Shown in pieces: positions 28,128-57,997 of a stretch of 64,000 bases of DNA (positions are counted from its first letter, which is position 1; each line of letters starts with the position of its first letter). Source of the stretch: Alphaproteobacteria bacterium (GTDB lineage Bacteria; Pseudomonadota; Alphaproteobacteria; CACIAM-22H2); contig JAEUKZ010000077.1 in assembly GCA_016793045.1 (NCBI GenBank), positions 1,497 through 65,496 of the forward strand, written 5' to 3'. The position numbers and the translations under genes were made by a program. The notes under the pieces were generated by a model. That model saw nothing but the letters and a program-made list of their open reading frames with translations, searched no databases and was not told the DNA's origin.

Positions 28128-28189
28128 TAGAATATCTCTCGCGGCGGCATGGTGAACTGCCGTGCCGCGATGTTTGTATATCACGCCAG

Positions 28190-28206
28190 TGCGTGTAACG
28201 CACGCC
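28190..28206. promoter_or_regulatory. candidate enhancer/UAS palindrome TGCGTG-N5-CACGCC upstream of the dpp sigma-54 promoter
   Basis: tgcgtgtaacgcacgcc. It is the second copy of the motif at 20399-20415 and lies about 120 bp upstream of the candidate -24 element. Confidence 0.3.
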
Positions 28207-28356
28207 ACCGTATTGGGTATGGTTCGGCGTGGGCCGGAGCGGCGCTTCCCCGGCCGCTTGTCGCGACTCCCTACGCTCGTCAATATGCGCCATGCGACCT
28301 GTTCCCGACATTGCGGCGCAGCACGCGGACGCGCACCCTCCGTTCACGCCGGCGCG

Positions 28357-35785: not shown

Positions 35786-35804
35786 TCCGGTCGTCCGATC
35801 GCCA

Positions 35805-36389
35805 TCACGCCTCGAAGAACACCGTCTCGCCGTCGCCCTGAAGGATGATGTCGAAGCGATAGGTGGTCACGCCGCCTTCCGTCGCTCCCGCCGACGCCAG
35901 GAGCGTCCGCCGCGCGACCGGATCGTCGATCGTCGCCAGGACCGGATCGCTCTCGTTCGCGGCGGACCGATCGGCGAAGTAGACCCGCGTCACGAGGTGC
36001 TTGAGCAGTCCACGGGCGAAGATCGTCATGTTGACGTGCGGCGCCTGCAACGTGTTGCCCCGACCCGGCACCCGTCCGGGCCTGACGGTCGTAAATGCGT
36101 AGCGCCCCTGTGCGTCCGTCGCGCAGCGGCCGAAGCCGCGAAAGCCTGGGTCGACGGGCTTTTCCTGTTCATCTTCGGGATGGTCGTACTTGCCGGCCGC
36201 ATTGGCCTGCCAGATCTCCAGCAGCGCATCCTGGACCGGCGCGCCGTCGCCGTCGCGGACCTGGCCTTCGATGCGGATGCGATCGCCGATCGCCTTGCCG
36301 CCGCCGGTGAGATCCGCCCACGCGGGTCGCTCGAGCCCGAAATGAAAGAACGGTCCGACGGTCTGCGAAGCGGTGGGAATTAGCTTCAT
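35805..36389 (-). CDS. pcaG: protocatechuate 3,4-dioxygenase alpha subunit
   Basis: 194 aa, MKLIPTASQTVGPFF, intradiol dioxygenase fold. Adjacent to pcaH. Confidence 0.9.
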   Translation of the reverse strand: MKLIPTASQTVGPFFHFGLERPAWADLTGGGKAIGDRIRIEGQVRDGDGAPVQDALLEIWQANAAGKYDHPEDEQEKPVDPGFRGFGRCATDAQGRYAFTTVRPGRVPGRGNTLQAPHVNMTIFARGLLKHLVTRVYFADRSAANESDPVLATIDDPVARRTLLASAGATEGGVTTYRFDIILQGDGETVFFEA

Positions 36390-36390
36390 C

Positions 36391-37098
36391 TCAGCTCTCC
36401 GTCGGCGTCGCCAGACGGCCGCGCAGCACGATGTCGAAGCGATAGCCCAGCGCGAACTCGGCCTCGCTCAGACCGGGATCGTAGGCCGAGATCAGCCGCT
36501 CGCGCGCCGCGCCGTCGGCGATGCTGTGATAGATTGGATCGAAGGCCAGCAGTGGATCGCCGGGAAAGTACATCTGCGTAACGATGCGCGTGACGAAGCC
36601 CGGGCCGAATACCGAGAAATGCAGGTGCTGCGCGCGCCAAGCGTTGTGGGTGTTCCGCCAGGGATAGGCACCCGGCTTGATCGTGAGAAAGCGCCATTCG
36701 CCGCGCTCGTTGGTCAGGACCTGACCAGCCCCGGTGAAGTTCGGGTCGAGAGGAGCCGGATGCTGATCGCGCGGATGGATGTAGCGGCCGGCCGAGTTCG
36801 CCTGCCACATTTCGAGGAGCGTACCGGCGACCGGGCGACCATCCTCGTCGAGCACGCGACCGGCGACAATGATGCGCTCACCGATCGGTTCGCCGCTGTG
36901 CTGGCGCGTCAGGTCCGCCATTTCCGGACCGGCCCAGCCGCTGGTGAAGGTCGGACCGGTCACCTCGCTCAAGGTATGCTCAAGCCGGATCTGGCCGCGC
37001 TTCGGCGCCCGCTTCACCGTGCTGCCATAGTCGGAATGCAGGTAGGGCGGTTGGCCGCCCTTGTACTCGCGCGCATATGGGCGCGGGTCGTTCGTCAT
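36391..37098 (-). CDS. pcaH: protocatechuate 3,4-dioxygenase beta subunit
   Basis: Start at the ATG at 37098 (MTNDPRPYAREYKGGQPPYLHSDY), preceded by AGGAGG. Intradiol Fe ligands are present (Y...Y...H...H context: HLHFSV). The ATG overlaps the pcaC stop (ATGA). Confidence 0.9.
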   Translation of the reverse strand: MTNDPRPYAREYKGGQPPYLHSDYGSTVKRAPKRGQIRLEHTLSEVTGPTFTSGWAGPEMADLTRQHSGEPIGERIIVAGRVLDEDGRPVAGTLLEMWQANSAGRYIHPRDQHPAPLDPNFTGAGQVLTNERGEWRFLTIKPGAYPWRNTHNAWRAQHLHFSVFGPGFVTRIVTQMYFPGDPLLAFDPIYHSIADGAARERLISAYDPGLSEAEFALGYRFDIVLRGRLATPTES

Positions 37099-37484
37099 GG
37101 CGAGTCCTCCTTGTCCATCTGATCGTAGGCCGCGCGCGCGTGGTGAAACGCCGAATTCGCCGCCGGCACGCCAGCATAGACTGCGACCTGAAGCAGAACC
37201 TCGCGCACTTCGTCGCGGGTCACGCCGGTGTTGCGTGTCGCCCGGATATGCAGCTTGAGTTCTTCGGTGTGGCCGAGCGCCGCAAGCATGGCGATCGTCA
37301 ACAAGCTCCGCGTCTTGCGGTCGAGCCCCGGCCGCGTCCAAACGCCCCCCCAAGCAAATCGCGTGATGAAGGTCTGGAAATCCCGGTCGAAGTCGGTCGC
37401 GTTCGCGCGCGACCGTTCGACGTGCGCTTCACCGAGGACCGACTTGCGGACCTCGAGGCCTCGATCGAAGAGGTCGTCAGCCAT
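37095..37484 (-). CDS. pcaC: 4-carboxymuconolactone decarboxylase
   Basis: 129 aa, MADDLFDRGLEVRKSVLGEAHVERS, CMD-family. The upstream 137 codons of the track ORF are a shadow. Confidence 0.88.
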   Translation of the reverse strand: MADDLFDRGLEVRKSVLGEAHVERSRANATDFDRDFQTFITRFAWGGVWTRPGLDRKTRSLLTIAMLAALGHTEELKLHIRATRNTGVTRDEVREVLLQVAVYAGVPAANSAFHHARAAYDQMDKEDSP

Positions 37485-37489
37485 CGCGC

Positions 37490-38290
37490 CTACCTCGCAA
37501 CCGAACCGAGGAATGACAGGAGCGTGCGATTGAGCTCCTCGGGGCGCTCGATCGTCGGGATATGTGCGGCCTGCTCGATCACCACCAGCCGGGCACCGGC
37601 AATCGAATCGCGCAGGGCCGCTGCCGCTTCGGGCGGTGTCGCGCGATCCTGGTCGCCGACGACGACGAGCGTCGGGCACGCGATGCGCGGGCCGTCCGCG
37701 GCAAGATCGGCATCGCGAATGGCAAGGCACGCAGCCGCATAGGCTTCGACCGGCGTGCGCGCCAGCATCACCGCGAAACCCCGCGCCGTCGCTTGCGCGC
37801 GCTCGCGAAATGCGTCCGTGAACCAGCGTGCCAGCACGCCTTCGACGATCACCGCCATCCCGCCGCGGCGCACCGCGGCAACGCGATCGTCCCATAGGGT
37901 CGGTGGCCCGATGCGGTTTGCCGTGTCGCAGAGCACCAGCGAGGACACGCGCGACGGCGCCTTCGCCGCCAGGCGCTGGCCGATCATGCCGCCGATCGAC
38001 AGCCCGCAGAAATTGACCTGCGCGATCCCCAAGGCGTCCATAAGGGCGATCGCATCGTCCGCATAGCGATCGATGTCCGGCGGCGCATCGGTCGGCGCAG
38101 GCAGTTCAGTGAGCCCGTGGCCGCGCTTGTCGTAGCGGAGCACGCGAAAGCGCGCCGCGAGTGCGGACGCCTGCGGGTCCCAGACGTGGAAGTTGGTGCC
38201 CAGCGAGTTCGCAAGCATCACGACCGGCGCACCCGCCGGCCCGCTGAGGTCGTAGTGGACGGCGAGCCCACCCGCGGCAATGAACGGCAT
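37490..38290 (-). CDS. pcaD: 3-oxoadipate enol-lactonase (alpha/beta hydrolase)
   Basis: 266 aa, HGLTELP...GLSIGGMIG nucleophile elbow. Sits within a pca gene context. Confidence 0.85.
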   Translation of the reverse strand: MPFIAAGGLAVHYDLSGPAGAPVVMLANSLGTNFHVWDPQASALAARFRVLRYDKRGHGLTELPAPTDAPPDIDRYADDAIALMDALGIAQVNFCGLSIGGMIGQRLAAKAPSRVSSLVLCDTANRIGPPTLWDDRVAAVRRGGMAVIVEGVLARWFTDAFRERAQATARGFAVMLARTPVEAYAAACLAIRDADLAADGPRIACPTLVVVGDQDRATPPEAAAALRDSIAGARLVVIEQAAHIPTIERPEELNRTLLSFLGSVAR

Positions 38291-38300
38291 GTCTCGCGTC

Positions 38301-39092
38301 CTAGCTCGCGGTCGACGCTGTGCCGTGCGCCGCGGCGGTCCGGCGCTTGAGCGCGCGGAGCGCCTCCAGGCTCGGCACGTCCGGCGCAGGCGTCATTCGT
38401 AGACTGTCCGACACCTTCAGCGCCCACCCTGTGGCGGCGCGAACCTGGTCGACCGTCGTGCCGGGATGGAGTTGCGTCAACGTGAGTTCCTTCGTTTCCG
38501 GATGCGGTTCGAGCACGCCGAGATCGGTGATGACGCGGGTGGGGCCCTTCGTCGCGACGCCGCGCCGTGCGCGATCAATGCCCCCGGTGCCGTGGCCGAT
38601 CGATGTCACGAAATCGAGCTGGTCGACGAAAGCACGCTTGTTCTGGCGCAGGATGATGAATACCTCCTTCGCCGACAGGGCAATTTCAGGCGCACCGCCC
38701 GCACCCGGCAGGCGGGTCTTCGGCTTGTCGTAGTCGCCGATGACGGTCGTGTTGATGTTGGCGAAACGGTCGATCTGCGCCGCACCGAGGAAGCCGACAT
38801 CGATGCGGCCGCCCTGAAGCCAGTAGGCAAAGATCTCCGGTACCGAGACGACCGCATCCGCCGTTTCCGCGAGTTCCCCGTCTCCGATCGACAGCGGCAG
38901 GACCGTCGGCTTGGCACCGATCGTGCCGCTTTCGTAGATCAGCACCAGCTCGGGCGCATGGGTCAGGCGCGCCAGATTCGCCGCAGTCGACGGCAATCCG
39001 ATGCCGACGAAACACACGACGCCACCCTTAAGCTGTCGCGCCGCTTCGACGGCCATCAACTCCTCGTTGGTGAAGGCGAGGGCGTCAGACAT
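38301..39092 (-). CDS. pcaJ: 3-oxoadipate CoA-transferase subunit B
   Basis: Starts MSDALAFTNEELMAVEAARQL. It has CoA-transferase beta motifs. The ATG at 39092 overlaps the pcaI 3' end by 8 nt. Confidence 0.88.
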   Translation of the reverse strand: MSDALAFTNEELMAVEAARQLKGGVVCFVGIGLPSTAANLARLTHAPELVLIYESGTIGAKPTVLPLSIGDGELAETADAVVSVPEIFAYWLQGGRIDVGFLGAAQIDRFANINTTVIGDYDKPKTRLPGAGGAPEIALSAKEVFIILRQNKRAFVDQLDFVTSIGHGTGGIDRARRGVATKGPTRVITDLGVLEPHPETKELTLTQLHPGTTVDQVRAATGWALKVSDSLRMTPAPDVPSLEALRALKRRTAAAHGTASTAS

Positions 39093-39933
39093 GGGGCTTC
39101 GCCGGCGTGCCATGGACAGACGCCTTTTCGAGTACATTTGCCTTCATCCAAGCCTCGAATCCGATGCGATCGCGGGCGATGCCGTCCCACGTGCCATAGA
39201 AGGCGTTGTCGCGCGGGTAATAGCCCTGGGCGTAGGAGGGGCGCGCTCCTCCCGGCGCAGGGCATACCGCGGCAATCACCCAATTGGGGATGACGACCGC
39301 CTGCGGCGGCGGCCGTAGTTCATCGACAACCTCCTCGACCGTGACGATCGCAGCGCGCCGCGCCGCGAGCACGGCCTCCTTCTGGACCCCGACGATGCCC
39401 CAGATCAGCACGTTGCCGCGCCGGTCTGCCTGCTGAGCGTGAACGATCGAGACGTCGGGCCGCAATGCGGGGACGGCCGCCAGTTTCTCGCCGGTGAACG
39501 GGCAGGTCACCGACCGTACGTTCGAATTGTGCGTCGGCAGGTCGGTGCCGACGAACCCGCGCAATGTGGCGAACGGCAGGTTCGCAGCACCGGCCGCATA
39601 GGCCGCGGCCATTGCCGCGTGGCTGTATTCCTCGATTGCGAGCGCCGCCGGCCAGCCATTCTCGATCGCGTCGCGAAAGCGATGGAGCGATCCCACGCCC
39701 GGATTGCCGCCCCAGGAGAACACCAACCGCTTCGCGCACCCCATGCCGATGAGTTGGTCGTAGATGACGTCCGGTGTCATGCGGATGAGCGTCAGGCCTC
39801 GCCGCCCCTGCCGGATGATCTCGTGGCCAGCTTCATGGGGGATGAGATGGGTGAAACCTTCGAGCGCAACGCTGTCGCCATCTCGCACATGCGCGGCAAT
39901 GGCTTCGCTCAGTGCGACGATCCGACCAGCCAA
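39085..39933 (-). CDS. pcaI: 3-oxoadipate CoA-transferase subunit A
   Basis: Start assigned to the TTG at 39933 (LAGRIVALSEAIAAHVRDGDSVALEGF), 5 nt downstream of GGGAGGAG. The upstream ATG at 40047 has no SD and would place the start inside a lower-GC operator-like region. Confidence 0.8.
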   Translation of the reverse strand: MAGRIVALSEAIAAHVRDGDSVALEGFTHLIPHEAGHEIIRQGRRGLTLIRMTPDVIYDQLIGMGCAKRLVFSWGGNPGVGSLHRFRDAIENGWPAALAIEEYSHAAMAAAYAAGAANLPFATLRGFVGTDLPTHNSNVRSVTCPFTGEKLAAVPALRPDVSIVHAQQADRRGNVLIWGIVGVQKEAVLAARRAAIVTVEEVVDELRPPPQAVVIPNWVIAAVCPAPGGARPSYAQGYYPRDNAFYGTWDGIARDRIGFEAWMKANVLEKASVHGTPAKPHV

Positions 39934-39967
39934 AGTCTCCTCCCGTATCGGCGGCGCCGATTGTGCG

Positions 39968-39996
39968 ATAACCGAACAAGCATTCGCTATGAGAAC
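39968..39996 (-). promoter_or_regulatory. candidate PcaR operator: two GTTCnnnTAT-type 10-mers (GTTCTCATAG, GTTCGGTTAT) in the pcaI upstream region
   Basis: The minus strand reads GTTCTCATAGcgaatgcttGTTCGGTTATcgcac. GTTCGGTTATCGCAC resembles the GTTCGATAATCGCAC PcaR box described for Pseudomonas putida, as I recall it from the literature. The local GC content is lower than its surroundings. Confidence 0.3.
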
Positions 39997-40081
39997 ATAC
40001 GAAGTTTGAGCGCGGTCGGCAATCCGTCGGACGGCGCGGCACAACATGCTGATTAAAAAGCGAGAAACGGATATCGGCGCG

Positions 40082-40963
40082 CTACTCGGGCTGGGGGATC
40101 AGGTCGACGGCGACGGTCAGGCTGTGCGCCCCCCCGCCGAGGATGACTCCGCGGACCGGGCTGACGTCGCCATAGTCCCGCCCCCAGGCCGCGACCACAT
40201 GCTCATCGCCGACGACCAGATCGTTGGTGGGATCGAGATCGATCCAGCCGTTCTCCGCGCCGCACCACAACGAGGCCCAGGCATGACTGGCATCGGCGCC
40301 GCGCAACGCGTCGTCGTGTGCCGGGCGATGCGTTGCGATGTAGCCGGACACGTAACGCGCCGCGAGCCCGAGCGAGCGCAGCGCGGCGACCTGGAGATGC
40401 GCGAAGTCCTGGCAGACCCCGGCGCGCTTCTCCAGCACCTCCGCCAGCGGCGTCGACAGATCGGTCGCCGTCGGATCGTAGCGGAACTCACGGTTGATCC
40501 GATGCGTAAGGTCGACCGCGGCGGCGAGGACCGGCCGTCCTTCGGGGAACGAGGCACGGGCGAAGTCGGCGACGGCGGCGCTCGCCGTCGCCAGCGGCGA
40601 GTCGAGCACGAACTCGCTTTCCCCGGCCGCCTCCGGCAGTCCGTCGCCAGCCAGTGCATCGCGAATTGCCTCCCACGTCGGGGTGGCATCGGACCGCGGG
40701 ACGGCGCGTGGCGCGACGTCGACTTCCGCATCGAGCAGGACGGAAAACCGATCGTGCGGCGCTTCGATCGCGAGAAATGTCACGCGGTTGCCGAAGTGAT
40801 CGACGAACTTCGACCGGCGCTCGGCCGCCGGCGTGCAGTCTACGACGACGCGCGTCGCGCGCTGCCACGGCAATGTACGCACGTCGAGCCGGAGCACATG
40901 ATGCGACAGGTCGACCGTCGCCCCGTAGTCGTAGGTCGTCTCGTGGCGCAGGCGATAGCGCAT
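40082..40963 (-). CDS. transglutaminase-like family protein (small; N-terminal bacterial TGase-like domain plus Cys-protease core)
   Basis: 293 aa from MRYRLRHETTYDYG (typical N-terminus). AGVCQDFAHL catalytic-Cys region. The ATG overlaps the upstream stop (TGATG). Confidence 0.85.
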   Translation of the reverse strand: MRYRLRHETTYDYGATVDLSHHVLRLDVRTLPWQRATRVVVDCTPAAERRSKFVDHFGNRVTFLAIEAPHDRFSVLLDAEVDVAPRAVPRSDATPTWEAIRDALAGDGLPEAAGESEFVLDSPLATASAAVADFARASFPEGRPVLAAAVDLTHRINREFRYDPTATDLSTPLAEVLEKRAGVCQDFAHLQVAALRSLGLAARYVSGYIATHRPAHDDALRGADASHAWASLWCGAENGWIDLDPTNDLVVGDEHVVAAWGRDYGDVSPVRGVILGGGAHSLTVAVDLIPQPE

Positions 40964-43524
40964 CAGCCGTAACCCACGGCGCGCGCGGCCTGCACATGAG
41001 AGAAGTACGACCGCGTGATCTCGTCCGACAGTCCCAACATGGCCTGCTCGACATCCGCGACGCGCTGCCTCAGCGAGGCCATCGCCGATGCAACCACCGT
41101 GTCGTCCAGGTCGTCGCGGTCGAAGGCGACGACCACCTCCACCAGCGTCTCGAACGGGGCAAGCATGTCCCGGCCGACGGCCCCGGCGCCGCGCGCCGGC
41201 AGGGCGGCGAGATGCCAGCGGATTGCGGCGGCTTGAAAGGCCAGCGACTGCGGGTTGCTGTCGTCGAGCAGCAGCAGGTCGAGGACCGGCGCGGGCTGGA
41301 GGGCGGCGAGATAGCGTGTGCGATAGGTGATCGTCGAGTCGCAGAGTTCGAGCGCCAGGTGCAACGCCGACTCCCAGTTCGGCCGCGGCGTCTCCTGCAC
41401 GCCGAGGATGACCCGCGCGACGTAGACCGCACGCTCCAGCCGATGGCCGAGGTCGAGGAATCGCCACCCACTGCCGCGCGTCATGTTCTCGGATGCCATT
41501 CCCGCCAGCGCGGCTGACACGCGCACGAGGTCGTCTAGCAGGTCGAGCATGCGGTCGGCATTCCCGGTCGCCCAGTCGAGACGGCCGCGCAGATCCCCAA
41601 GGAGATGATTGACCGTTCGCCACATGTCGACGGAGAAGCGATCGCGCGCCGATGCGGCAAGCCGGTCCATCGCCTGCAGAGTCTGATCCATCAGCCGCCC
41701 CGGCGCGAAGGCATGCACCAGCGCATGCGACAACAGCATTCCGTCGGGCGGCGCAGCAGCCACGGCCGGATCGACGATGCCGCACCGCGCGAGGACCCGC
41801 GTTATCGCCGCCATCTCGACGAAGTCGCGCGCGCCGGCGAAGCCCGACACGACGCGCTGCAGTGCCGCGCGCAGCAGCCGCCCGCCGTTGTCGAGCCGCT
41901 CGGCATTGCGCCCCAGCCAATAGAGGTTGTCGGCAGCCCGGCTGGGTAGCTCTCCGACCGTCCGCCGGATGACGATGCGGTTGCGTGCCGGCCGTGCGAC
42001 CGATCCACCGTCCGCCGGCTCGTCGGCCTCCACCCAGACGTCCTTGTTGACGCCCCCGCGCTGCAGCGAGGCCCGCAGCGGGTCGTTTCCCGCCGGCACG
42101 CGCGCGATTCCGCCCGGCATCACCGCGTAACCGCCGCGATCGGCGGTGGCGAAGACACGCAGCACGATCGACTGCGGTTCGAGGCCGGCGGCACCGAGGC
42201 CCGGCGCGACCGATGCCACGATGGCTTCCTGGGCCACGAACCCGTCGGGACGGTTGCGAAGCCGCGCGACCAGCGCCGCGCGAGCCTCCGCATCGAGCGC
42301 CGCGACATGCACGGGCTCGCCGCCGGCGGAGAATGCCGGGCGCAGCGCAAGCTCCGGCAGCCGGTCCATCACTTCGTTGAGCGCGTAGGACTGGCCGCAC
42401 CACCAGGTTGCCACCGATGGCAGCCGCAACGCTTCGCCCAGCAGCTGCTCGGCGAGGCGCGGCAGGAACGCGGCAAGCGCGGGCGTGTCGACAAGGCCGC
42501 TGCCAAGCGCGTTGGCGAGCGACACGTTGCCGGCGCGGACCGCGTCGAGCAGACCCACGACACCGAGTGCGGAATCGCCGCGCAGTTCGAGTGGATCGCA
42601 CCAGTTGCCGTCGACGCGCCGCAGGATGACGTCGACAGGCTGGAGACCGCCCAGCGTCTTAAGGAAGATCCGGCCGCCGCGCGCCGTCAGATCGGCGCCC
42701 TCGACCATCGTCGCCCCAAGTTGGCGAGCGAGGTATACGTGTTCGAAGTAGGCTTCGTTGAAGGGCCCTGGCGTCAGCAGCACGATGCGCGGGTTGTCGC
42801 GGTCGCCGCGTGAGCGCGCCTGGAGGTCCGCCTGCCAGGCGTCGAAAAAGGATGCGATCGGCCGCACCCTGCTCGCCCGGAACGCCTCGCCCATCACCCG
42901 CGTCATGACGCGCCGGTTCTGCAGCGCATAGGCTGCACCAGCCGGTCCCTGGGCGCGATCGGCGACGACCCGCCAGATTCCGTCCGGGGAGCGCGTCAGG
43001 TCCACGGCATAGTGCTGGAGATGGGCCGTCGGCGCGCCATGCACTGCGTTACGGCATGGCCGCAGAAAATCCGCACTGCCGAAGACGAGCGCCGGCGGGT
43101 AGCGGTGCGCCGTGAGAAGCGTTTGCGGGCCGTAGAGGTCCGCAAGCACGCGGTCAAGCAGGTGCGCCCGCTGGATGACGCCGGCTTCGATCGTCGCCCA
43201 TTCCTCGGTACAGATCACCAGGGGCAGCGGATCGAGCGCCCACGGGCGCTGAAGTCCTGGCGCGCGCGCGCTGCCGCGACCGCGTATCGGCGCATCCGCG
43301 GCGGCGTAAAGGTTGAAGGTGACTCCGTCTTCCTCGAGATGCTGGCGCGCGCGTTCGGCGCGATCGGCGATACCGCCGTCGCCAAGCTGGCTCAACGACC
43401 CGAACAGCGGCTGCCAGTGCTTACGAATGGCGCCCTGGCCGGTGACCATCTCGTCATAGCCGGCAGGCGCCGTGGGCGCATCGGCGCCAGCACCGTTCGA
43501 TCGGGCGAGCAATGACGAAACCAT
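40963..43524 (-). CDS. circularly permuted type-2 ATP-grasp protein fused to an alpha-E domain (853 aa)
   Basis: The N-terminal half carries GYDEM...IRKHW and the ATP-grasp region (PRIVLLTPGPFNEAYFEHVYLARQLG). The C-terminal ~300 aa form an alpha-E-like helical domain. It is normally found as two separate genes next to transglutaminases. Confidence 0.85.
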   Translation of the reverse strand: MVSSLLARSNGAGADAPTAPAGYDEMVTGQGAIRKHWQPLFGSLSQLGDGGIADRAERARQHLEEDGVTFNLYAAADAPIRGRGSARAPGLQRPWALDPLPLVICTEEWATIEAGVIQRAHLLDRVLADLYGPQTLLTAHRYPPALVFGSADFLRPCRNAVHGAPTAHLQHYAVDLTRSPDGIWRVVADRAQGPAGAAYALQNRRVMTRVMGEAFRASRVRPIASFFDAWQADLQARSRGDRDNPRIVLLTPGPFNEAYFEHVYLARQLGATMVEGADLTARGGRIFLKTLGGLQPVDVILRRVDGNWCDPLELRGDSALGVVGLLDAVRAGNVSLANALGSGLVDTPALAAFLPRLAEQLLGEALRLPSVATWWCGQSYALNEVMDRLPELALRPAFSAGGEPVHVAALDAEARAALVARLRNRPDGFVAQEAIVASVAPGLGAAGLEPQSIVLRVFATADRGGYAVMPGGIARVPAGNDPLRASLQRGGVNKDVWVEADEPADGGSVARPARNRIVIRRTVGELPSRAADNLYWLGRNAERLDNGGRLLRAALQRVVSGFAGARDFVEMAAITRVLARCGIVDPAVAAAPPDGMLLSHALVHAFAPGRLMDQTLQAMDRLAASARDRFSVDMWRTVNHLLGDLRGRLDWATGNADRMLDLLDDLVRVSAALAGMASENMTRGSGWRFLDLGHRLERAVYVARVILGVQETPRPNWESALHLALELCDSTITYRTRYLAALQPAPVLDLLLLDDSNPQSLAFQAAAIRWHLAALPARGAGAVGRDMLAPFETLVEVVVAFDRDDLDDTVVASAMASLRQRVADVEQAMLGLSDEITRSYFSHVQAARAVGYG

Positions 43525-43557
43525 GAGCGGCCGGAGCGATCCCTACGGGGGCGAATC

Positions 43558-46500
43558 TCACCCCGTGCGGAGATCGAGTGTAAGGGGCATTTCCCGGGTT
43601 GCAACCCTCGCCGGCGCGGGCCTGGGGCCCGGGGTATGGCCGATGGCGAAAAATCGCGCCCGTCGCCGTGCCTCGGCCTCGTTGGCGTTGACCGGGAAGC
43701 GGTCGAAGTTGCGCCCGCCGGGATGTGAGACGTGATAGGTGCAGCCAGCGAGGGAGCGGCCGCTCCACGAATCGAAGACGTCGAAGACCAACGGCGTGTG
43801 GACGGGCACCGTCGGGTGGAGCGCATTGGGAGGCGCCCAGGCCTTGAAACGGACGCCGGCGACATATTCGCCGGCGACGCCGGTGGCACGCATCGGCACG
43901 GCGCGTCCGTTGCACGCAATCACAAAGCGCTCGTCGGTGAAGCCGTTCATCTTGACCTGGAGACGTTCGACGGAGGAATCGACGAACCGCACGGTGCCGC
44001 CCGCAGACGAGTCCTCGCCCAGGACATGCCATGGCTCCAGCGCGTGCCGCAGCTCGAGCTCCATGCCGCGGCACGCGATCGCGCCGATCTGAGGGAAGCG
44101 GAACTCGTGATGCGGTGCGAACCAGGCCGGATCGATCGGATAGCCTGACCGGCGCACGTCGTCGATGACGTCGGCGAAATCCTGGGCGCAGAAATGCGGC
44201 AGCAGGAATTCGTCATGCAGCCGCGTCCCCCAGCGCACCGCCGCACGATCATATGGCTCGCGCCAAAATGCGGCGATGAGGCTGCGCAGCAGGAGCTGCT
44301 GCGCCAGGCTCATTCGCGCGTGCGGCGGCATTTCGAACGCACGCAGCTCGAGCAGGCCGAGGCGCCCGCTTGGCCCGTCCGGCGAATAGAGCTTGTCGAT
44401 GCAGAACTCGGTGCGGTGGGTATTGCCCGTGACGTCGATCAGGACGTTGCGGAATATGCGGTCGACGATCCAGGGCGGCGGCTCCTTCGCCGCGGCGATC
44501 GCACGAAATGCGATGTCGAGTTCGAGCAGCGCGTCATCGCGCGCCTCGTCGACGCGCGGATGCTGGCTGGTGGGCCCGATGAACAGGCCCGAGAACAGAT
44601 ACGACAGCGACGGATGGTTCTGCCAGTAGGCGATCAGGCTGCGCAAAAGGTCGGGACGGCGCAGCAGCGGGCTGTCGGCCGCCGCCGCCGCGCCGAGCAC
44701 GAAGTGGTTACCGCCGCCGGTCCCGACATGGCGGCCGTCGAGCATGAACTTCTCGGTCGCAAGCCGCGCCGAACGCGCCTCGTCGTACAGTACGGTCGTC
44801 CGCTCGACGAGCTGGTCCCAGGACTCGGCAGGGTGGATGTTCACCTCGATGACGCCGGGATCGGGCGTGACGCTGAAATGCTGCAGGCGCGGATCGCGCG
44901 GCGGCGGATACCCCTCGATGACAACCGGACGGCCGAGCGAGTCGGCGGTGTCTTCGATCGCGGCGACGAGATCGAGATAGTCCTCGGTCTCCGCGAGCGG
45001 CGGCATGAAGACATAGAGGAGTCCGCCGCGCGGCTCGACGCAGAGCGCCATACGCACCACCCATGCCGCCGATTGCTGGGCGCCAGGAACCGGCGGCAGC
45101 GGTGGACGCGCGCCCTCGACCGACCGCAGGCCGCGCGCGCCGTGCGCGCTGCCATCGCGCGTTCGGCCGCGCATCCCCTCGGCGACGGCGAGGTAGGGCT
45201 GACGCATCTCGTCGAGCCGCAGCAGCGGACCGCGCACCTCAAATGGATCGACCTCGACCTGGTAGGGATAGTCGCGCTCGCTGACCCAGGGAAGGCTGTC
45301 GAGCGGCAGCCGCAGTCCCATCGGCGAGTCGCCCGGCAACAGGAACATCCTCTCCGGCCGCAGGAACCACGGGCCGGACACCCAGCGCCGCGCCGTGCCT
45401 GCCGCATCGCGCCGCAATGGCAGTGCATAGCCGATGACGGACTCGAGCCCCTGTTCGAAGATGCGCGCCAGCCGCGCGCGCTCCTCGGGCTCGGCGAGAT
45501 TCGACTGCAGCGGATCGACGTTCACCGGCAGGCGGCGCTCCCGCCACAGGTAGTACCAGACGTCCTCGTAGGCCGGAACGCGGAAGGCCGGATCGACCTG
45601 AAGGCGCTCGGCGAGTGCGGCGGCGAATTCATCGGCGTGCGCCGCAGTGGCACTGCCGCGATCCTCGTCGGAGGCGAGCAGCGCGCGATTGCGCCAGATC
45701 GGTTCCCCATCGCGACGCCAATGGCAGGACAGCGCCCAGCGCGGCAAGGACTCGCCCGGGTACCACTTGCCCTGCCCGTAGTGCAGCAAGGCGCCCGACG
45801 TGAAACGGTCGGCGAGCCGACGCAGCAGAATGCCGGCGCGCCGCCGCTTCGTCGGCCCAAGTGCCGCCGTGTTCCATTCGGCCCCGTCGACGTCGTCGAC
45901 CGATACGAATGTCGGCTCTCCGCCCATCGTCAGCCGCACGTCGGACGCCTGAAGATCCGCGTCGACCGCGCGGCCAGCGGCAAGGATCGCCGCCCATTGC
46001 TCCTCGGTATATGGCTTGGTCACTCGCGGCGTTTCGCGGATCCGCGCAACCTTCATGTCGAAGCCGAATTCGACCTCGGCCTTCTCGACGAGGCCGGAGA
46101 TCGGCGCGGCGCTGCTCGGCTCGGGCGTTGCGGCTAGCGGGATGTGCCCTTCGCCGGCCATCAGCCCGGAGGTCGGGTCGAGCCCAATCCAGCCCGCGCC
46201 GGGAAGATAGACCTCGCACCATGCATGCAGGTCGGTGAAGTCGTGCGCTGGGCCGGACGGTCCGTCGAGGGCCTTCTGATCGGCGGTCAGCTGAATCAGG
46301 TAGCCGGAGACGAAACGGGCGGCGAAACCAAGGTTGCGCAACAGCTGCACCATCAGCCAGCCGCTGTCACGGCACGACCCGCTCTTGAGCGCCAGCGTCT
46401 CTTCGGGCGACTGGACGCCCGGCTCCATCCTGATCAGGTAGCGGACATCGCGCGACAGGCGCTGGTTGATCTCGACCAGGACATCGATCGTGCGCCTGCG

Positions 46501-46911
46501 CGTGCGATCGACCGAGGCGATCAGTGCCGCGAACAGCGGACCGGCCGGTTCGATCCTGCGGAACGGCGCGATCTCCTGGGCAAGGCCCGGGTCGTATTCA
46601 AACGGCCAGGTCTCGGCCTCGGGCTCGAGGAAGAAGTCGAAGGGATTGATCACCGCCATGTCGGCGACGAGATCGACCCTCACCTCGAAGTGGCGCGTCT
46701 TCTCTGGAAACACGAGCCGCGCAAGGAAGTTTCCCTGCGGATCCTGCTGCCAATTGAGAAAGTGCTGCTTCGGCTCGATGGTCAGCGAATAGGACAGGAT
46801 CGGCGTGCGTGCATGCGGCGCGGGCCGCAGGCGGACCATCTGCGGGCCGAGGCTGATCAGCCGATCATAGCGGTAGCTCGTGCGATGCTGGAGCGCGACG
46901 TGGATGCTCAT
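43558..46911 (-). CDS. large transglutaminase family protein (N-terminal TGase-like domains plus C-terminal DUF2126-like region), 1117 aa
   Basis: MSIHVALQHRTSYRYDRLI N-terminus. SGSCRDSGWLMVQLLRNLG (TGase core Cys). Long conserved C-terminal extension. AGGGG SD. Confidence 0.88.
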   Translation of the reverse strand: MSIHVALQHRTSYRYDRLISLGPQMVRLRPAPHARTPILSYSLTIEPKQHFLNWQQDPQGNFLARLVFPEKTRHFEVRVDLVADMAVINPFDFFLEPEAETWPFEYDPGLAQEIAPFRRIEPAGPLFAALIASVDRTRRRTIDVLVEINQRLSRDVRYLIRMEPGVQSPEETLALKSGSCRDSGWLMVQLLRNLGFAARFVSGYLIQLTADQKALDGPSGPAHDFTDLHAWCEVYLPGAGWIGLDPTSGLMAGEGHIPLAATPEPSSAAPISGLVEKAEVEFGFDMKVARIRETPRVTKPYTEEQWAAILAAGRAVDADLQASDVRLTMGGEPTFVSVDDVDGAEWNTAALGPTKRRRAGILLRRLADRFTSGALLHYGQGKWYPGESLPRWALSCHWRRDGEPIWRNRALLASDEDRGSATAAHADEFAAALAERLQVDPAFRVPAYEDVWYYLWRERRLPVNVDPLQSNLAEPEERARLARIFEQGLESVIGYALPLRRDAAGTARRWVSGPWFLRPERMFLLPGDSPMGLRLPLDSLPWVSERDYPYQVEVDPFEVRGPLLRLDEMRQPYLAVAEGMRGRTRDGSAHGARGLRSVEGARPPLPPVPGAQQSAAWVVRMALCVEPRGGLLYVFMPPLAETEDYLDLVAAIEDTADSLGRPVVIEGYPPPRDPRLQHFSVTPDPGVIEVNIHPAESWDQLVERTTVLYDEARSARLATEKFMLDGRHVGTGGGNHFVLGAAAAADSPLLRRPDLLRSLIAYWQNHPSLSYLFSGLFIGPTSQHPRVDEARDDALLELDIAFRAIAAAKEPPPWIVDRIFRNVLIDVTGNTHRTEFCIDKLYSPDGPSGRLGLLELRAFEMPPHARMSLAQQLLLRSLIAAFWREPYDRAAVRWGTRLHDEFLLPHFCAQDFADVIDDVRRSGYPIDPAWFAPHHEFRFPQIGAIACRGMELELRHALEPWHVLGEDSSAGGTVRFVDSSVERLQVKMNGFTDERFVIACNGRAVPMRATGVAGEYVAGVRFKAWAPPNALHPTVPVHTPLVFDVFDSWSGRSLAGCTYHVSHPGGRNFDRFPVNANEAEARRRARFFAIGHTPGPRPAPARVATREMPLTLDLRTG

Positions 46912-47026
46912 CGGTTGACCCCTGCAGTTTCCGCCCTGCGCCGAATGACGCTCCGAACCGCCGCATGTCGATGCGTGGCTGAGATCCGCCTGCCCTTACG
47001 CGCCTTTGGCTTGCAAGTCAGATGCC

Positions 47027-47060
47027 AAAAAAGCGCCGAGGCGGCGGCCGCAGCGCCATG
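47027..47060 (-). terminator. possible intrinsic terminator after the SBP gene (GC-rich imperfect stem plus T6 on the minus strand)
   Basis: The minus strand reads GGCGCTGCGGCCGCCGCCTCGGCGCTTTTTTGG and begins 4 nt after the SBP stop at 47064. The stem is imperfect. Confidence 0.25.
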
Positions 47061-47063
47061 CCG

Positions 47064-48611
47064 TCACCGGATCGATGTCGCTTCGGTGATCGGCGGGGCC
47101 AGATTGAGCGATCCATCCAGCTGATAACCCAGATCCAGTGCATCGCGCCGGACCCAGACCTGGAGCAGATCATAGAGCGGCACCGAACAGACCTGCGTCA
47201 TGATCCTGCGCTGCGCATCGGCCCACAGGGCCAGCTGGCGTTCGCGGTTCGGCTCCGCGCGCGCGGCATCGATCTCCGCATCCGCCACGTCGCAATGCGC
47301 GAAGTTGAGCGCGGCGGTCGGCGTGCCGATCCGCGAACGCGAGTGGTAGAACTGCGTCAGGTAGCTGTCGGCAATGGGAAAGCGGGCCGCGCCGTAGAAC
47401 GTGAGCGCGCTGAGATCCTGGCGTATCTTCGCATGATAGGTCGAGTGGTCGACGACCTCCATCTCCAGGTTGATGCCGACGCGCCGGAGTTGCGCCTGGA
47501 CCTGCTCCATGATCGGCAGCTGCGCCGAGATGTTGGAGACGACCGCGCGGATCGTGAAGCCGTTCGGATGGCCGGCCTCCGCGAGCAGCGCGCGCGCGCG
47601 CGCGAGGTCGGGCGCATAACGCGGCACTTCGGGAGTCTCGCCGAGATAGCCCTGCGGTACGACCGAGCGTCCTGGAACAACGACGTCGGCGCCGACGAAG
47701 CGGACGATTGCGTTGACGTCGATCGCATGCGCGATCGCACGGCGCACGCGGACGTCGTCGAGCGGGCGCATCCGCGTGTTGATCAGCAGCGTTCGGAACT
47801 CGCCCGGCCGGAAGACGTCGACGACGACGCCGCGCTGGCTGCGCATCCGTTCGACCCAGCGCTGCTCGCGCCGGCCGGCGAACAGGTCGATCTCGCCCGA
47901 CGTGAAGGCAAGTTCGCGCGTCGCATCGGACGTGATGTAGCGCACCTCGATCCGCGGAACGCGCGGCGCCCCCCGAAAATACTCGCGATGCGCCACCAGG
48001 GTCGTGACCGTCTGCGGCCGGTATTCACCGAACGCGAACGGGCCCGTCCCAATCGGGCGACGTCGGAAGTCGTCGCCCATCTCCTCTGCTGCGCGGCGGC
48101 TGATGATCAGTCCGCCATGATAGTCCGACACGAGGCCGAGCAGGCTCGGGACGGTGTTGGCGAGAGTGATCCGCACCGTGTAGGGATCGACCGCATCGAC
48201 CGTGCGAAAATCCGTGAAGTCGCTCGCGAAGGATGATCGCCGCGTATCGGCGGCGCGGCGCAGCGAGAACACCACGTCATCGGCCGTCAGCTCGCCATAC
48301 CCGTGGTGGAACTTCACGCCGCGCCGGAGGTGGAACGTCCAGACCAGACCGTCAGGCGAACTTTCCCACCGCTCGGCGAGGTCGGCTTCGAGCCGCGCGG
48401 GGTCCGCCGATCCGGGCGGGAACCGTACGAGGCCGTTGAACATCCAGCCGAACAGCGCCACATCCTGCGACGCCGACGAACGATGCGGATCGAGATTGCC
48501 GGCATCTCCCGCCGGCACCGCAACGCGCAATGGCCGCTCCTGGGCGCCAGCCGGACCTGACGAGATAAGGAATGCGGTCAGCATGACCGCAACTACGAAA
48601 CGAAGTCGCAT
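47064..48611 (-). CDS. ABC transporter substrate-binding protein, family 5 (peptide/opine/nickel type); paralog of the SBP at 57998
   Basis: 515 aa from MRLRFVVAVMLTAFLISSGPAGAQE. Shares GWMFNGLVRF, LAERWESSPDG, VPSLLGLV and PIGTGPF blocks with the 57998 SBP. Confidence 0.85.
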   Translation of the reverse strand: MRLRFVVAVMLTAFLISSGPAGAQERPLRVAVPAGDAGNLDPHRSSASQDVALFGWMFNGLVRFPPGSADPARLEADLAERWESSPDGLVWTFHLRRGVKFHHGYGELTADDVVFSLRRAADTRRSSFASDFTDFRTVDAVDPYTVRITLANTVPSLLGLVSDYHGGLIISRRAAEEMGDDFRRRPIGTGPFAFGEYRPQTVTTLVAHREYFRGAPRVPRIEVRYITSDATRELAFTSGEIDLFAGRREQRWVERMRSQRGVVVDVFRPGEFRTLLINTRMRPLDDVRVRRAIAHAIDVNAIVRFVGADVVVPGRSVVPQGYLGETPEVPRYAPDLARARALLAEAGHPNGFTIRAVVSNISAQLPIMEQVQAQLRRVGINLEMEVVDHSTYHAKIRQDLSALTFYGAARFPIADSYLTQFYHSRSRIGTPTAALNFAHCDVADAEIDAARAEPNRERQLALWADAQRRIMTQVCSVPLYDLLQVWVRRDALDLGYQLDGSLNLAPPITEATSIR

Positions 48612-48671
48612 GGCACCCCCGCACGGTTTGGCTTTGAATTCTGCGCCAGCGGACTGCATCCTAGCAATCGA

Positions 48672-49838
48672 ATGTCGGAGCCCACATCCGTGAGCGATAC
48701 AAGTCGCGACAAAGTAACCGAAGCGGGCGTCGCCGTGATCGGCGGCGGCATGGTCGGCAGCGCTCTTGCCTATGGCCTCGCGAAGCGCGGGGCGAACGTC
48801 GTACTGCTCGACGAAGGCGACATCGCCTATCGCGCCGCACGCGGAAACTTCGGGCTAGTCTGGACGCAGAGCAAGGGCGACGGCATGCCGGCCTATGCGG
48901 CGTGGAGTCTCGCCAGTGCCGCCGCTTGGCCGGATTTCGCCGAGGCGATGGCAAGCGCTGCGGGCCGCTCGATCGGATACGAACAGCGCGGTGGACTGGT
49001 GTTCTGCGTCGGCGACGCCGAACGCGACCAGCGTGCAGCGCAGCTGCGCCGCCTGCACAATCAGCGCGACGATGCCGCTCCCGTCGCAACGATGCTCGAT
49101 CGCAAGGCTCTGCACGATCTGATGCCGCGCACGCCGCTTGGCCCGCAGGTCGTGGCGGCGTCCTACGCGCCAGGCGACGGTCACGTGAACCCGCTCTACC
49201 TGCTGCGCGGCCTGCATGCCGCCATCCGTCGGCACGGCGGGCGTCACGCGCCCGGCGCCGCTGTGACGCAGATCGTCCCGACCGGCGGCGGGTTCACGCT
49301 GACGCGCGCCGACGGCGCGATGCTGCGCGCCGACAGGATCGTGATCGCCGCCGGCGTCGCGACCACGAGACTTGCCGCGATGGTCGACATCGCCGCACCG
49401 GTGCGCCCGCAGCGCGGCCAGATCATGGTCACCGAGCGCCTTGCGCCGCTCCTGCCGCTGCCGGCCAGTGCGCTGCGTCAGAGCGCAGAAGGCTCCGTGA
49501 TGATAGGCGTATCGGTCGAGGAGGTCGGGCTCGACACCGGCACCACGGTCAAGGAACTCGCCCGCATGGCCGCACGCGCCCTGACCGTGCTGCCGGTGCT
49601 TGCCGAAGCGCGCATGACCCGGGCCTGGGGCGCGCTGCGCCCGATGACTCCCGATGGTTTTCCGGCCTATGCCCAGTCCTCGACATATCCAGGCGCCTTT
49701 GTCGCGACCTGCCATTCCGGCGTCACACTCGCGGCGATCCATGCCGAAGCGCTGGCGCCCGCGATCCTCGCCGGCCGCCTGCCGGACGGTTTCGAACCCT
49801 TTCACCCGAGACGCTTCGATGTTCGCACGGCCGCATAG
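48672..49838 (+). CDS. FAD-dependent oxidoreductase (DadA/HcnC/opine-oxidase subunit B/sarcosine-oxidase beta-like)
   Basis: VAVIGGGMVGSALAYGLAKRGANVVLLDEG dinucleotide fold. 388 aa. Confidence 0.85.
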   Translation: MSEPTSVSDTSRDKVTEAGVAVIGGGMVGSALAYGLAKRGANVVLLDEGDIAYRAARGNFGLVWTQSKGDGMPAYAAWSLASAAAWPDFAEAMASAAGRSIGYEQRGGLVFCVGDAERDQRAAQLRRLHNQRDDAAPVATMLDRKALHDLMPRTPLGPQVVAASYAPGDGHVNPLYLLRGLHAAIRRHGGRHAPGAAVTQIVPTGGGFTLTRADGAMLRADRIVIAAGVATTRLAAMVDIAAPVRPQRGQIMVTERLAPLLPLPASALRQSAEGSVMIGVSVEEVGLDTGTTVKELARMAARALTVLPVLAEARMTRAWGALRPMTPDGFPAYAQSSTYPGAFVATCHSGVTLAAIHAEALAPAILAGRLPDGFEPFHPRRFDVRTAA

Positions 49839-50130
49839 CGATACGCCGCACCTCACCATCACCGTCGATGGCCAACCGGTCGGTGCACGCGAAGGCGACA
49901 GTGTCGCCGCAGCACTGCTCGCCGCCGGCGTCGTCGCGATGCGGTCGACCCCCGTCTCGCAGAGCAAGCGCGGGCCCTATTGCATGATGGGCGTCTGTTT
50001 CGACTGCCTCATGATCATCGACGGCGTACCAAGCCGGCAGGCCTGCATGGTGAGCGTGCGCGACGGCATGCGGATCGAGCGCCAGCGTGGCCCGCGTCCG
50101 CTCGAGGTCGATACGGAGGACTCGCCGTGA
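49819..50130 (+). CDS. (2Fe-2S)-binding small subunit (HcnA/opine-oxidase subunit C-like)
   Basis: 103 aa, MFARPHSDTPHLTITVDGQPVGAREGDSVAAALLAAG...CMMGVCFDC. Overlaps the previous gene by 20 nt. Confidence 0.7.
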   Translation: MFARPHSDTPHLTITVDGQPVGAREGDSVAAALLAAGVVAMRSTPVSQSKRGPYCMMGVCFDCLMIIDGVPSRQACMVSVRDGMRIERQRGPRPLEVDTEDSP

Positions 50131-51560
50131 GCGCCGAGCGCATCGCAACCGACGTGCCGGCGCGCGCCGACATCGTCGTCATCGGCGGCGGGCCCGCCGG
50201 GCTGGCTGCCGCGACCGAGGCTGCGCGGCGCGGGGCGGCGGTCGTCCTGCTCGACGAGCAGCCGGCGCTTGGCGGCCAGGTCTATCGCGCCGTCGAGGCC
50301 AATCGCGCCCGCGGCAAGACCCTCGACGCCGACTATGCCGAAGGCGGGAGGCTCGTCGACGCGTTCCGCGCGTCGGGCGCGCTTGCGATCCACGAGGCGA
50401 GCGTGTGGCTGGTCGAACCCGACGGCACCGTCGGCTTCAGTCGCGCCGGAGCGGCGACGCTGATGAAGGCCGAACGCGTGATCGTCGCCACCGGGGCCGT
50501 CGAGCGTGCGATGCCGATCCCCGGCTGGACGCTGCCGGGGGTCATGACCGTCGGCGCCGCGCAGATCCTGCTCAAGACGGCCGGCCTGGTGCCGCAGGGC
50601 CGCGTCTGGATCGCCGGTAGCGGGCCCTTGCTGCGACTCTATGCGGTGCAGGCACTCGCGGCGGGCGGGCAGCTTGCCGGCATCATCGACACGACTCCGC
50701 CGGGCAATCGGCGTGCGGCCTTGCGCCATATGGGCGGCGCAATGGGCGCGCTCGGCGAACTGCGCAAGGGCCTCGCCTGGACGCAGGCAATCAGGCAGGC
50801 GGGTGTGCCATGGATCACCGGCGCGCACGATCTGCGGGCGGAGGCCGACGACGACGGTGCGCTCGGTACGATCTCGTTCACCGCCGACGGCGCGCGGCGC
50901 AGCGAACCAGCGGATACGTTGCTCCTGCACAACGGCGTTGTGCCGAACGTGCAGATCACGCGCGCACTCGACATTGAACACGATTGGAATCAGACGCAGC
51001 GCGCATTCCGGCCGCGCTGCGACGCCTGGGGATCGACGTCGGTGCCGGCAGTGATGATCGCAGGCGACGGCGCCGGCATTGTCGGCGCCGCCGCATCGGC
51101 GATCGCCGGGCGGCTTGCGGCGCTCGAGTCCCTGCGCGCGCTCGGCAGACTCGACCAGGCAGCGCGTGATGACGCCGCCGCTCCGCTGCGGCGCGCCCTC
51201 GCGCGAGCGTTGGCGATCAGGCCGTTCCTCGATGCGCTGTTTGCCCCGTCGCCGGAGTACCTCGTACCGGCCGGGGAGACGATCGTTTGCCGTTGCGAAG
51301 AAGTGACTGCAAGCGCGCTGCGCCAGGCCGTGTCGCTCGGCTGCCTCGGACCGAACCAGCTCAAGTCGTTCACGCGCTGCGGCATGGGCCCATGCCAAGG
51401 CCGGATTTGCGGCCTGACCGTCGCGGAAGTCATCGCGTCGGCACGCGGCGCATCGGTCGCCGATGTCGGCTACTATCGGCTGCGCTTTCCGATCAAGCCG
51501 CTGACGCTTGGCGAGTTGGCGGCGGTGCACGCGCCGGCAGACCCGACCGCGCCGCGATGA
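50127..51560 (+). CDS. NAD(P)/FAD-dependent oxidoreductase with C-terminal BFD-like [2Fe-2S] domain (HcnB/opine-oxidase subunit A-like)
   Basis: GTG start is preceded by GGAGGA and overlaps the stop (GTGA). IVVIGGGPAGLAAA. C-terminal CRCEEVT...CGMGPCQGRICG. Confidence 0.85.
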   Translation: MSAERIATDVPARADIVVIGGGPAGLAAATEAARRGAAVVLLDEQPALGGQVYRAVEANRARGKTLDADYAEGGRLVDAFRASGALAIHEASVWLVEPDGTVGFSRAGAATLMKAERVIVATGAVERAMPIPGWTLPGVMTVGAAQILLKTAGLVPQGRVWIAGSGPLLRLYAVQALAAGGQLAGIIDTTPPGNRRAALRHMGGAMGALGELRKGLAWTQAIRQAGVPWITGAHDLRAEADDDGALGTISFTADGARRSEPADTLLLHNGVVPNVQITRALDIEHDWNQTQRAFRPRCDAWGSTSVPAVMIAGDGAGIVGAAASAIAGRLAALESLRALGRLDQAARDDAAAPLRRALARALAIRPFLDALFAPSPEYLVPAGETIVCRCEEVTASALRQAVSLGCLGPNQLKSFTRCGMGPCQGRICGLTVAEVIASARGASVADVGYYRLRFPIKPLTLGELAAVHAPADPTAPR

Positions 51561-55133: not shown

Positions 55134-55429
55134 GCGCGACACCGGCCCAGTTCCGGCGTGTCGCCGAAACGGCGCGGCCGCGCGTCGCGATCACGATCGA
55201 CGGCGCGCCGGCATCGGCGCTGGCCGGCGATACGGTTCTGACCGCGCTGCTGGTCAATGGCCGTCGCGTCCGGCATTCGGATTTCGGCGACGGCCCCCGT
55301 GCCGGGTTCTGCCTGATGGGAGCGTGCCAGGATTGCTGGGTGTGGACCGAAGCCGGCGAGCGGCTGCGTGCCTGTACGACATACGTCGCGGACGGCCTCG
55401 CCATCCGCACGACGCCGGAGGCGCCGTGA
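55130..55429 (+). CDS. (2Fe-2S)-binding small subunit (HcnA-like), second module
   Basis: GTG start overlaps the SDR stop (GTGA). [29 protein letters not shown]...CLMGACQDC. 99 aa. Confidence 0.68.
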
Positions 55430-57959: not shown

Positions 57960-57997
57960 ACCAGGCACCCCCAAGACCACAAAACCAGGAGGCTCAG

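Follow-up and report, generated by a model that had tools for sequence, protein, structure and literature searches.

A widespread three-gene operon of putative ligases and transglutaminase-like proteins carries a conserved sigma-54 promoter motif in an alphaproteobacterium

Within a 64,000-nucleotide stretch of alphaproteobacterial DNA (hereafter the window), positions 40082-46911 are filled by three open reading frames (ORFs), here called g1, g2 and g3, which lie on the minus strand throughout. The first, g1 (43558..46911), encodes a protein of 1117 amino acids (aa) that combines a transglutaminase-like thiol hydrolase/transferase domain with DUF2126, a putative carboxylate-amine ligase, and a C-terminal beta-rich region. 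The second, g2 (40963..43524), encodes an 853-aa protein in which a circularly permuted ATP-grasp domain is joined to an Alpha-E domain, and the third, g3 (40082..40963), encodes a stand-alone transglutaminase-like protein of 293 aa. The junctions between the genes are tight: 33 nt separate the TGA stop of g1 (43560-43558) from the ATG of g2 (43524), and the stop of g2 and the start of g3 share the letters TGATG, with an overlap of 1 nt at 40963. A first-pass annotation had proposed exactly this span of three co-directional genes with tight junctions and a start/stop overlap in the last pair, and the description holds; the strand, which it left out, is minus. The first ATG, GTG or TTG in the g2 frame is the ATG at 43524, so that 853 aa is the maximum length and the 33-nt gap stays. 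In the closest relative, g2 is called at 866 aa (L082 7467-10067), and there its start and the g1 stop overlap by 4 nt. No second copies of g1, g2 or g3 are found elsewhere in the window.

Profile searches match all four domain families that had been proposed for these proteins, CP_ATPgrasp_2, Alpha-E, Transglut_core and DUF2126. In g1, a Bact_transglu_N domain (46663..46896, aa 6-83; PF08379, 2.9e-25) is followed by Transglut_core (46174..46512, aa 134-246; 7.4e-16), in which the triad Cys180, His229 and Asp245 is invariant, and then by DUF2126 (43567..46086, aa 276-1115; PF09899), which aligns over 826 of the 826 profile positions with E = 0 and 1338 bits. The operon is thus indeed led by a giant transglutaminase with a full-length DUF2126 region at its C-terminus, as first described. 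In g2, CP_ATPgrasp_2 (42097..43224, aa 101-476; Pfam 8e-135) and the all-helical Alpha-E domain (41002..41949, aa 526-841; PF04168, 5.5e-59) lie on either side of a disordered linker (aa 503-527). Sixty-two residues of g2 are at least 97% invariant among 63 fused orthologues from several phyla. The Glu-Arg motifs of Alpha-E, E542-R543 and E697-R698, are invariant in the alignment, and R539, R543 and E697-R698 reach at least 97% in the 63 orthologues. In g3, Bact_transglu_N and Transglut_core (Pfam, the latter at 5.6e-20) both lie within 40082..40963, and across 59 orthologues the triad residues Cys184 (59/59), His227 (56/59) and Asp244 (59/59) are retained.

We further note that this arrangement is very widespread. 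The counts of related loci given here and below refer to the best 80 of at least 590 confirmed loci from a genome scan, which are 59-68% identical to g1 over its full length, and synteny was counted over the 71 loci that extend 3.6 kb or more downstream of g1. Relatives of g1 at 59-68% identity come from Alpha-, Beta- and Gammaproteobacteria (including Pseudomonas, Marinobacter and Burkholderia), Acidobacteriota, Verrucomicrobiota and Planctomycetota. More than 8000 relatives of g1 are found at E<=1e-10 in a word-indexed database, and 3198 representatives of 50%-identity clusters match at E<=1e-30 when scanned exhaustively. Each of the best 120 g1 relatives is about 1100 aa long with all three domains, and all of the best 120 g2 relatives have both domains and measure 828-872 aa, save one 636-aa fragment. 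The order g1, fused g2, g3 is kept in 64 of the 71 loci, which represent at least four phyla, while a split pair takes the place of g2 in none (0/71); the median spacing between g2 and g3 is 7 nt (65 loci). The closest genome (GCA_044223295.1, g1 90% identical) matches the window in these three genes, their order and their flanks. Since 64 of 71 loci share the fused arrangement, the locus is the minimal three-gene core of a very widespread system, a core in which fusion is the norm. Both the fusion and the giant leader gene, which had been presented as features of this particular locus, are therefore real without being peculiar to it. The architecture as such is already known; it is the same as in descriptions from 2008-2009, and it has been annotated automatically in thousands of genomes.

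These comparisons also bear on whether the three genes are genuine. The GC content at third codon positions in g1 and g2 (0.83-0.84, compared with about 0.5 at second positions) marks them as coding rather than chance ORFs, and the three genes are real coding genes. The idea that they are chance ORFs or pseudogenes, or that a frameshifted pair was misread as a fusion, has a vanishingly small probability and is refuted by the full-length, high-scoring domain matches, by thousands of full-length relatives of the same size and by a fused ORF in all 64 syntenic loci, to which the coding-type codon bias may be added. A hidden frameshift, which the first-pass annotation had raised as a threat to its reading of the fusion, is not found: the g2 ORF runs uninterrupted through both domains, its relatives are of like length, and the closest genome has the same three genes.

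Beyond the core, an unfused pair of an ATP-grasp gene (about 500 aa) and an Alpha-E gene (about 330 aa) lies beside g1 in 25 of the 80 loci, giving five- and six-gene clusters (e.g. L054 6520-8968). In the six-gene form seen in Burkholderia, the unfused pair is joined by a small transglutaminase-like gene of its own (L009 6471-10006). The ATP-grasp half of g2 is only 32-36% identical to the unfused paralogue beside g1. This second ATP-grasp/Alpha-E pair is the sole recurrent co-conserved neighbour when all ORFs of the 80 loci are clustered, and the same clustering yields no co-conserved substrate, tag, transporter or regulator gene. The association suggests that the two paralogous sets, fused and unfused, work together. 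Other recurring neighbours are lineage-specific, namely a radical-SAM gene in Pseudomonas, ComEC in Burkholderiales, azurin and LysR. Insertions between g1 and g2 occur in six loci and are heterogeneous, comprising a porin, a TPR protein, hybrid histidine kinases, a cyclase and an alpha/beta hydrolase; a PAS/histidine-kinase/receiver hybrid sensor lies between g1 and g2 in two Burkholderiales loci (L050 14282-16246; L066 12684-14660). In Marinobacter, g3 is followed by a MarC-family membrane protein and a ChaC-like gamma-glutamylcyclotransferase (L054 15957-17222). Neither family is represented in the 25 ORF clusters that are most widespread across the 80 loci, and the pair is probably lineage-specific, although it would fit gamma-glutamyl chemistry. 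The DUF2126 ligase domain may also occur on its own, as one representative (P0245, 844 aa) aligns to g1 residues 279-1115 alone, lacking the N-terminal transglutaminase domain; many other short matches in that set are clearly fragments. Records at about 70% nucleotide identity in a plasmid database carry no usable annotation.

The main addition to what was known of this operon is a predicted sigma-54 promoter in front of g1. The 152-nt gap upstream of g1 holds TGGCATCTGACTTGCA (47012..47027, minus strand), a -24/-12 box of the form TGGCAT-N5-TTGCA, with its GG at 47026-47025 and its GC at 47014-47013, that matches the consensus TGGCAY-N5-TTGCW exactly, some 100 nt ahead of g1. Neither strand of the window has another exact match to this consensus, and the number expected there by chance is 0.06. 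The predicted transcription start, near 47001, would leave about 90 nt before the ATG of g1. The closest relative keeps both the -24 and the -12 box letter for letter, although its spacer and flanks have diverged. The motif also recurs across the related loci: when a box is counted if it scores at least 10 out of 11 and lies no more than 250 nt upstream of g1, and with random windows from the same loci as controls, 33 of 80 loci (41%) have a box compared with 0.8% of control windows, an approximately 50-fold enrichment. The boxes also follow gene order. They are present in 33 of the 64 loci where g1 comes first and in none of the 16 where g1 stands behind a same-strand unfused pair (Fisher p = 9e-5), and in 11 of those 16 loci weaker boxes (score 9 or more) are found upstream of the preceding pair instead. 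The earlier statement that the window provides no regulator thus stands for a linked regulator gene and fails for regulation in the wider sense, as an exact and conserved promoter box precedes the operon.

Two further boxes in the window match the consensus with one mismatch. The first, TGGCACGGGCGATGCT (20289-20304, minus strand), lies just upstream of an AtuA-like gene (18827-20215, minus strand). That gene adjoins the sole sigma-54 activator gene of the window (20332-21504, minus strand), which encodes a 390-aa protein with Sigma54_activat and HTH_8 domains and without a receiver or sensor domain. The activator stands 26 kb from g1, beside its own candidate target, and the two genes look like a separate sigma-54 unit, which shows that the organism uses RpoN. 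The second box, TGGCTTGGGTTTTGCT (28059-28074, minus strand), precedes an SBP_bac_5 gene (26461-28050, minus strand) by 9-24 nt, as measured from the start of the longest ORF (28050). All three matches in the window at no more than one mismatch therefore sit immediately upstream of a correctly oriented gene.

Upstream of the operon on the same strand is an SBP_bac_5 solute-binding gene (47064..48659), beyond which comes a divergent FAD-oxidase pair. Just after the stop of the solute-binding gene, and directly ahead of the sigma-54 box, a terminator-like GC hairpin (47046-47034) with a U-run (47028..47046, minus strand) may mark where the operon is bounded upstream; no other terminator-like site was found in 39500-47400, and the folding energy of -17.8 kcal/mol is equalled by shuffled versions of this GC-rich stretch (z = 0.19). 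Downstream (33645-40047, minus strand) lies a protocatechuate/beta-ketoadipate set with two coenzyme A-transferase subunits, an alpha/beta hydrolase, both dioxygenase subunits, a cycloisomerase-type lyase and an IclR regulator. Opine/sarcosine-oxidase-like flavoprotein sets (DAO, Pyr_redox_2, Fer2_BFD, SO_alpha_A3) are found at 28162-30968, 48672-52684 and 55324-56802, all on the plus strand, and each adjoins a family-5 peptide/opine-binding ATP-binding cassette transporter gene (SBP_bac_5: 26461-28050, 47064-48659, 57956-59551).

Such neighbours raise the question of whether g1-g3 are accessory parts of the catabolic islands around them, the pca genes downstream and the opine-type oxidase with its peptide-binding transporter upstream. 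The closest relative has the same flanks, only about 35 nt separate g3 from the pcaI-type ORF if this is taken at its greatest length, and the sequence after g3 shows no terminator. The pcaI start in the relative, however, lies 142 nt after g3, the pca genes have their own IclR regulator, and no flanking family recurs across the 80 loci. The SBP_bac_5 and pca flanks are common to the window and its closest relative and are seen in no other related locus. Because they are unconserved outside that relative, the flanking genes are neighbours by descent and not partners, and we reject membership in the pca or opine islands as highly improbable.

Structure predictions point to the chemistry of the two large proteins. 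The AlphaFold2 model of g2 (predicted local distance difference test, pLDDT, 74) has an alpha/beta N-terminal half and an all-helical C-terminal half joined by the disordered linker, and the circularly permuted ATP-grasp identity of the protein is borne out. Fold searches with the ATP-grasp half retrieve glutathione and glutathionylspermidine synthetases, and its nearest structural relatives are all small-molecule ligases; the Alpha-E half retrieves generic helical bundles only. For DUF2126, a fold search with a low-confidence model retrieves the GS/GCL/PafA-type fold of glutamine synthetase (GS)-type ligases, in agreement with the literature. Sequence and profile searches find no relatives of DUF2126 or Alpha-E in the Protein Data Bank, and weak-hit Pfam scans of DUF2126 sub-segments give no link to GS-type families. 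On these models DUF2126 is a putative ATP-dependent carboxylate-amine ligase of the glutamine-synthetase type, and the folds lend support to two distinct ATP-dependent ligases in the operon.

Regulatory data from other bacteria link operons of this kind to nitrogen limitation. The operon of ATP-grasp, Alpha-E and transglutaminase genes, with or without the proteasome-like Anbu, has been described repeatedly (Valas and Bourne, 2008; Iyer et al., 2009; Fuchs et al., 2017; Piasecka et al., 2018). In P. putida limited for nitrogen, the genes of the Anbu-type operon rank among those with the strongest induction, and in marine metagenomes the operon domains co-vary with urea-metabolism domains. In Burkholderia cenocepacia H111, the cluster I35_5080-5083 (BCAM1233-1236) depends strongly on NtrC and sigma-54 under nitrogen limitation and falls by 6 to 9.4 log2 units in an ntrC mutant (PMC5491218). 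The annotations of this cluster fit the layout of the Burkholderia locus L009, and its sigma-54 dependence fits the TGGCATCTGACTTGCA box. I35_5083 would be the g1 orthologue as judged from annotation and from L009 rather than from sequence. The B. cenocepacia cluster is of the six-gene form with the unfused set first, whereas the window has the three-gene form with the predicted promoter directly upstream of g1. By analogy, the operon may well be controlled by nitrogen limitation in this organism too.

Taken together, these observations lead us to favour, tentatively, a pair of ligase/thiol-amidase modules that would be induced by nitrogen limitation and act on small amines or short peptides. 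The genes would form a cytoplasmic three-gene operon, and since it has its own predicted sigma-54 promoter, activation under nitrogen limitation through an enhancer-binding activator is the most likely mode of control. Module one would be g1 alone, a GS-type ligase (DUF2126) fused to a papain-like domain with a transglutaminase fold and a Cys-His-Asp triad. Module two would be g2 with g3, in which a glutathione-synthetase-like, circularly permuted ATP-grasp domain with an obligatory Alpha-E partner is translationally coupled to a second Cys-His-Asp protein. Each ligase would convert a carboxylate to an acyl-phosphate and join it to an amine, and each thiol domain would hydrolyse or transfer the resulting amide, in cis in g1 and between g2 and g3 in the second module. 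The substrates would be low-molecular-weight amines or short peptides, with gamma-glutamyl-type amides as products, and the role would be nitrogen capture, storage or recycling, as in the bifunctional enzyme glutathionylspermidine synthetase/amidase (GspSA) and in gamma-glutamylation pathways. We lean towards small substrates because of the structural neighbours of the ATP-grasp half, the parallel with GspSA, the lack of a tag or target gene and the presence of matching clusters in nitrogen-scavenging regulons.

The long-standing alternative is protein or peptide tagging and de-tagging, in which the ATP-grasp half, and perhaps the GS-like domain, would add tags to target carboxylates, Alpha-E would recognise the target and the transglutaminase folds would remove the tags, as modelled on tubulin tyrosination/glutamylation or on pupylation. 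That the operon ligates and removes peptides is the prediction attributed to Iyer et al. (2009), and it has been repeated in several papers. It was also the reading of the first-pass annotation, which described the neighbourhood as conserved, predicted to ligate and remove peptides and lacking a confirmed function, in agreement with the literature. Induction by nitrogen limitation would fit regulated protein turnover, and a housekeeping target need not be encoded nearby. Against tagging, no conserved small tag ORF or target gene is found in the 80 loci, in line with what Iyer et al. noted for the family typified by Rv2566 of Mycobacterium tuberculosis, and the nearest structural relatives of the ATP-grasp half all act on small molecules. 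A scan of roughly 30 ORFs that flank the operon in the window shows no Anbu gene (proteasome-type domain), nor does such a family recur in the 80 loci. With the co-expressed proteins of the four-gene Anbu-type set of Yersinia, pull-downs in which Anbu served as bait detected none of the other operon products as a specific partner, and Anbu had no peptidase activity towards any substrate tried. We regard dedicated tagging as somewhat unlikely and prefer the small-amide reading to it, if only tentatively.

Several points nevertheless weigh against the ligase/thiol-amidase reading, and some of them speak for tagging. Structural neighbours show ancestry and leave the substrate unfixed, and both ligase superfamilies include protein ligases such as PafA. 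TTL and RimK are likewise protein ligases of these superfamilies. The unfused set is often linked to Anbu, which suggests peptide or protein substrates, and the negative Yersinia pull-downs count here as well. Confidence in the g1 model is low (pLDDT 52), and in lysates reported in 2026 Rv2567 and Rv2411c lacked the one activity that was tested and figure only as negative candidates. As for control, there is no NtrC-consensus site near the g1 promoter and no linked activator gene, so that nitrogen control here is extrapolated from other organisms, and the scan of 39500-47400 finds no intrinsic terminator between g3 and the downstream pca genes.

A third possibility is bulk proteolysis for nitrogen salvage, with the transglutaminase folds acting as proteases or protein-glutamine deamidases and the ligases serving as regulatory or ATP-sensing proteins. 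Similar ideas have been raised for the Anbu operon, and a Burkholderia cluster of matching layout belongs to the NtrC regulon. This would, however, leave unexplained two large ligases that are about 60% identical across phyla and always co-encoded. Rv2569c is a small transglutaminase-like protein and the putative g3 orthologue. This COG1305-type protein is reported to be a protease that is insensitive to cysteine-protease inhibitors, with a claimed serine-protease activity, which misfits the Cys-His-Asp triad of g3 if the orthology is right. We consider bulk proteolysis improbable, well behind the ligase/thiol-amidase reading.

The locus itself is ordinary; its family is among the more conspicuous conserved bacterial systems of unknown function, with a g1 of about 1100 aa that stays near 60% identity from phylum to phylum and, by the 2008 description, also occurs in M. 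tuberculosis. The three-gene form represents its minimal core, to which other genomes add the unfused ATP-grasp/Alpha-E (and transglutaminase) set. The conserved sigma-54 promoter offers a regulatory handle that is consistent with the published NtrC-dependence of the matching Burkholderia cluster. Together with the predicted folds and the definition of the core, it points to nitrogen starvation as the condition in which to look for a function and to C180, C184 and the ligase sites as targets for mutation. A bolder proposition, which we hold to be unlikely as it stands, is that the operon makes and trims an undescribed amide in nitrogen starvation, either a gamma-glutamyl-type nitrogen-banking metabolite or an ATP-dependent protein modification. 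If true, this would give a function to a family found in thousands of genomes, including Rv2566 and, presumably, Rv2567 of M. tuberculosis.

Among known systems, the Anbu-type operon shares with the window the same three domain families in the order ligase, Alpha-E, transglutaminase, as well as the link to nitrogen limitation. It differs in that the ligase and Alpha-E are fused here, that no Anbu gene is seen and that a DUF2126 gene leads. One homologous ATP-grasp protein releases phosphate from ATP, and the authors of the Anbu study regard hypotheses on the role of the operon as unconfirmed. Pupylation by PafA/Dop differs in that the window has neither a Pup-like gene nor a proteasome gene and shows no similarity to that system at the level of sequence. 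Neither PADLOC anti-phage defence models nor NCBIfam match g1, g2 or g3, and the locus is neither pupylation-like nor a defence system.

A mechanistic parallel is E. coli GspSA, in which an ATP-dependent carboxylate-amine ligase forms the very bond that a papain-like thiol amidase in the same protein cleaves. The combination of thiol amidase and ligase is what the two systems have in common, as a likeness of mechanism and not of family membership. The amidase of GspSA is a CHAP domain fused to an ATP-grasp domain, whereas the thiol domain of g1 has a transglutaminase fold and its ligase would be of the GS type; in module two, unlike in GspSA, the thiol domain is a separate protein.

Among the closest known counterparts is the Rv2566 family. 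With M. tuberculosis Rv2566 as their example, Iyer, Burroughs and Aravind (2008) described large proteins whose N-terminal part is a transglutaminase-like domain and whose C-terminal part is a carboxylate-amine ligase domain, and they observed that no Pup-like ORF lies near the genes of this family. A search for DUF2126 by name found no paper, nor any published activity for an Rv2566-type member. Rv2567, which adjoins Rv2566, is presumably a fused circularly permuted ATP-grasp::Alpha-E protein. We find no architectural difference between Rv2566 and g1, and neither has a Pup-like small ORF nearby; the present genes come from a high-GC alphaproteobacterium that is Rhodospirillales-like by its best g1 and g2 matches. 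Apart from the optional Anbu, the locus thus shows every defining feature that was tested of both the Rv2566-type family and the ATP-grasp/Alpha-E/transglutaminase neighbourhood.

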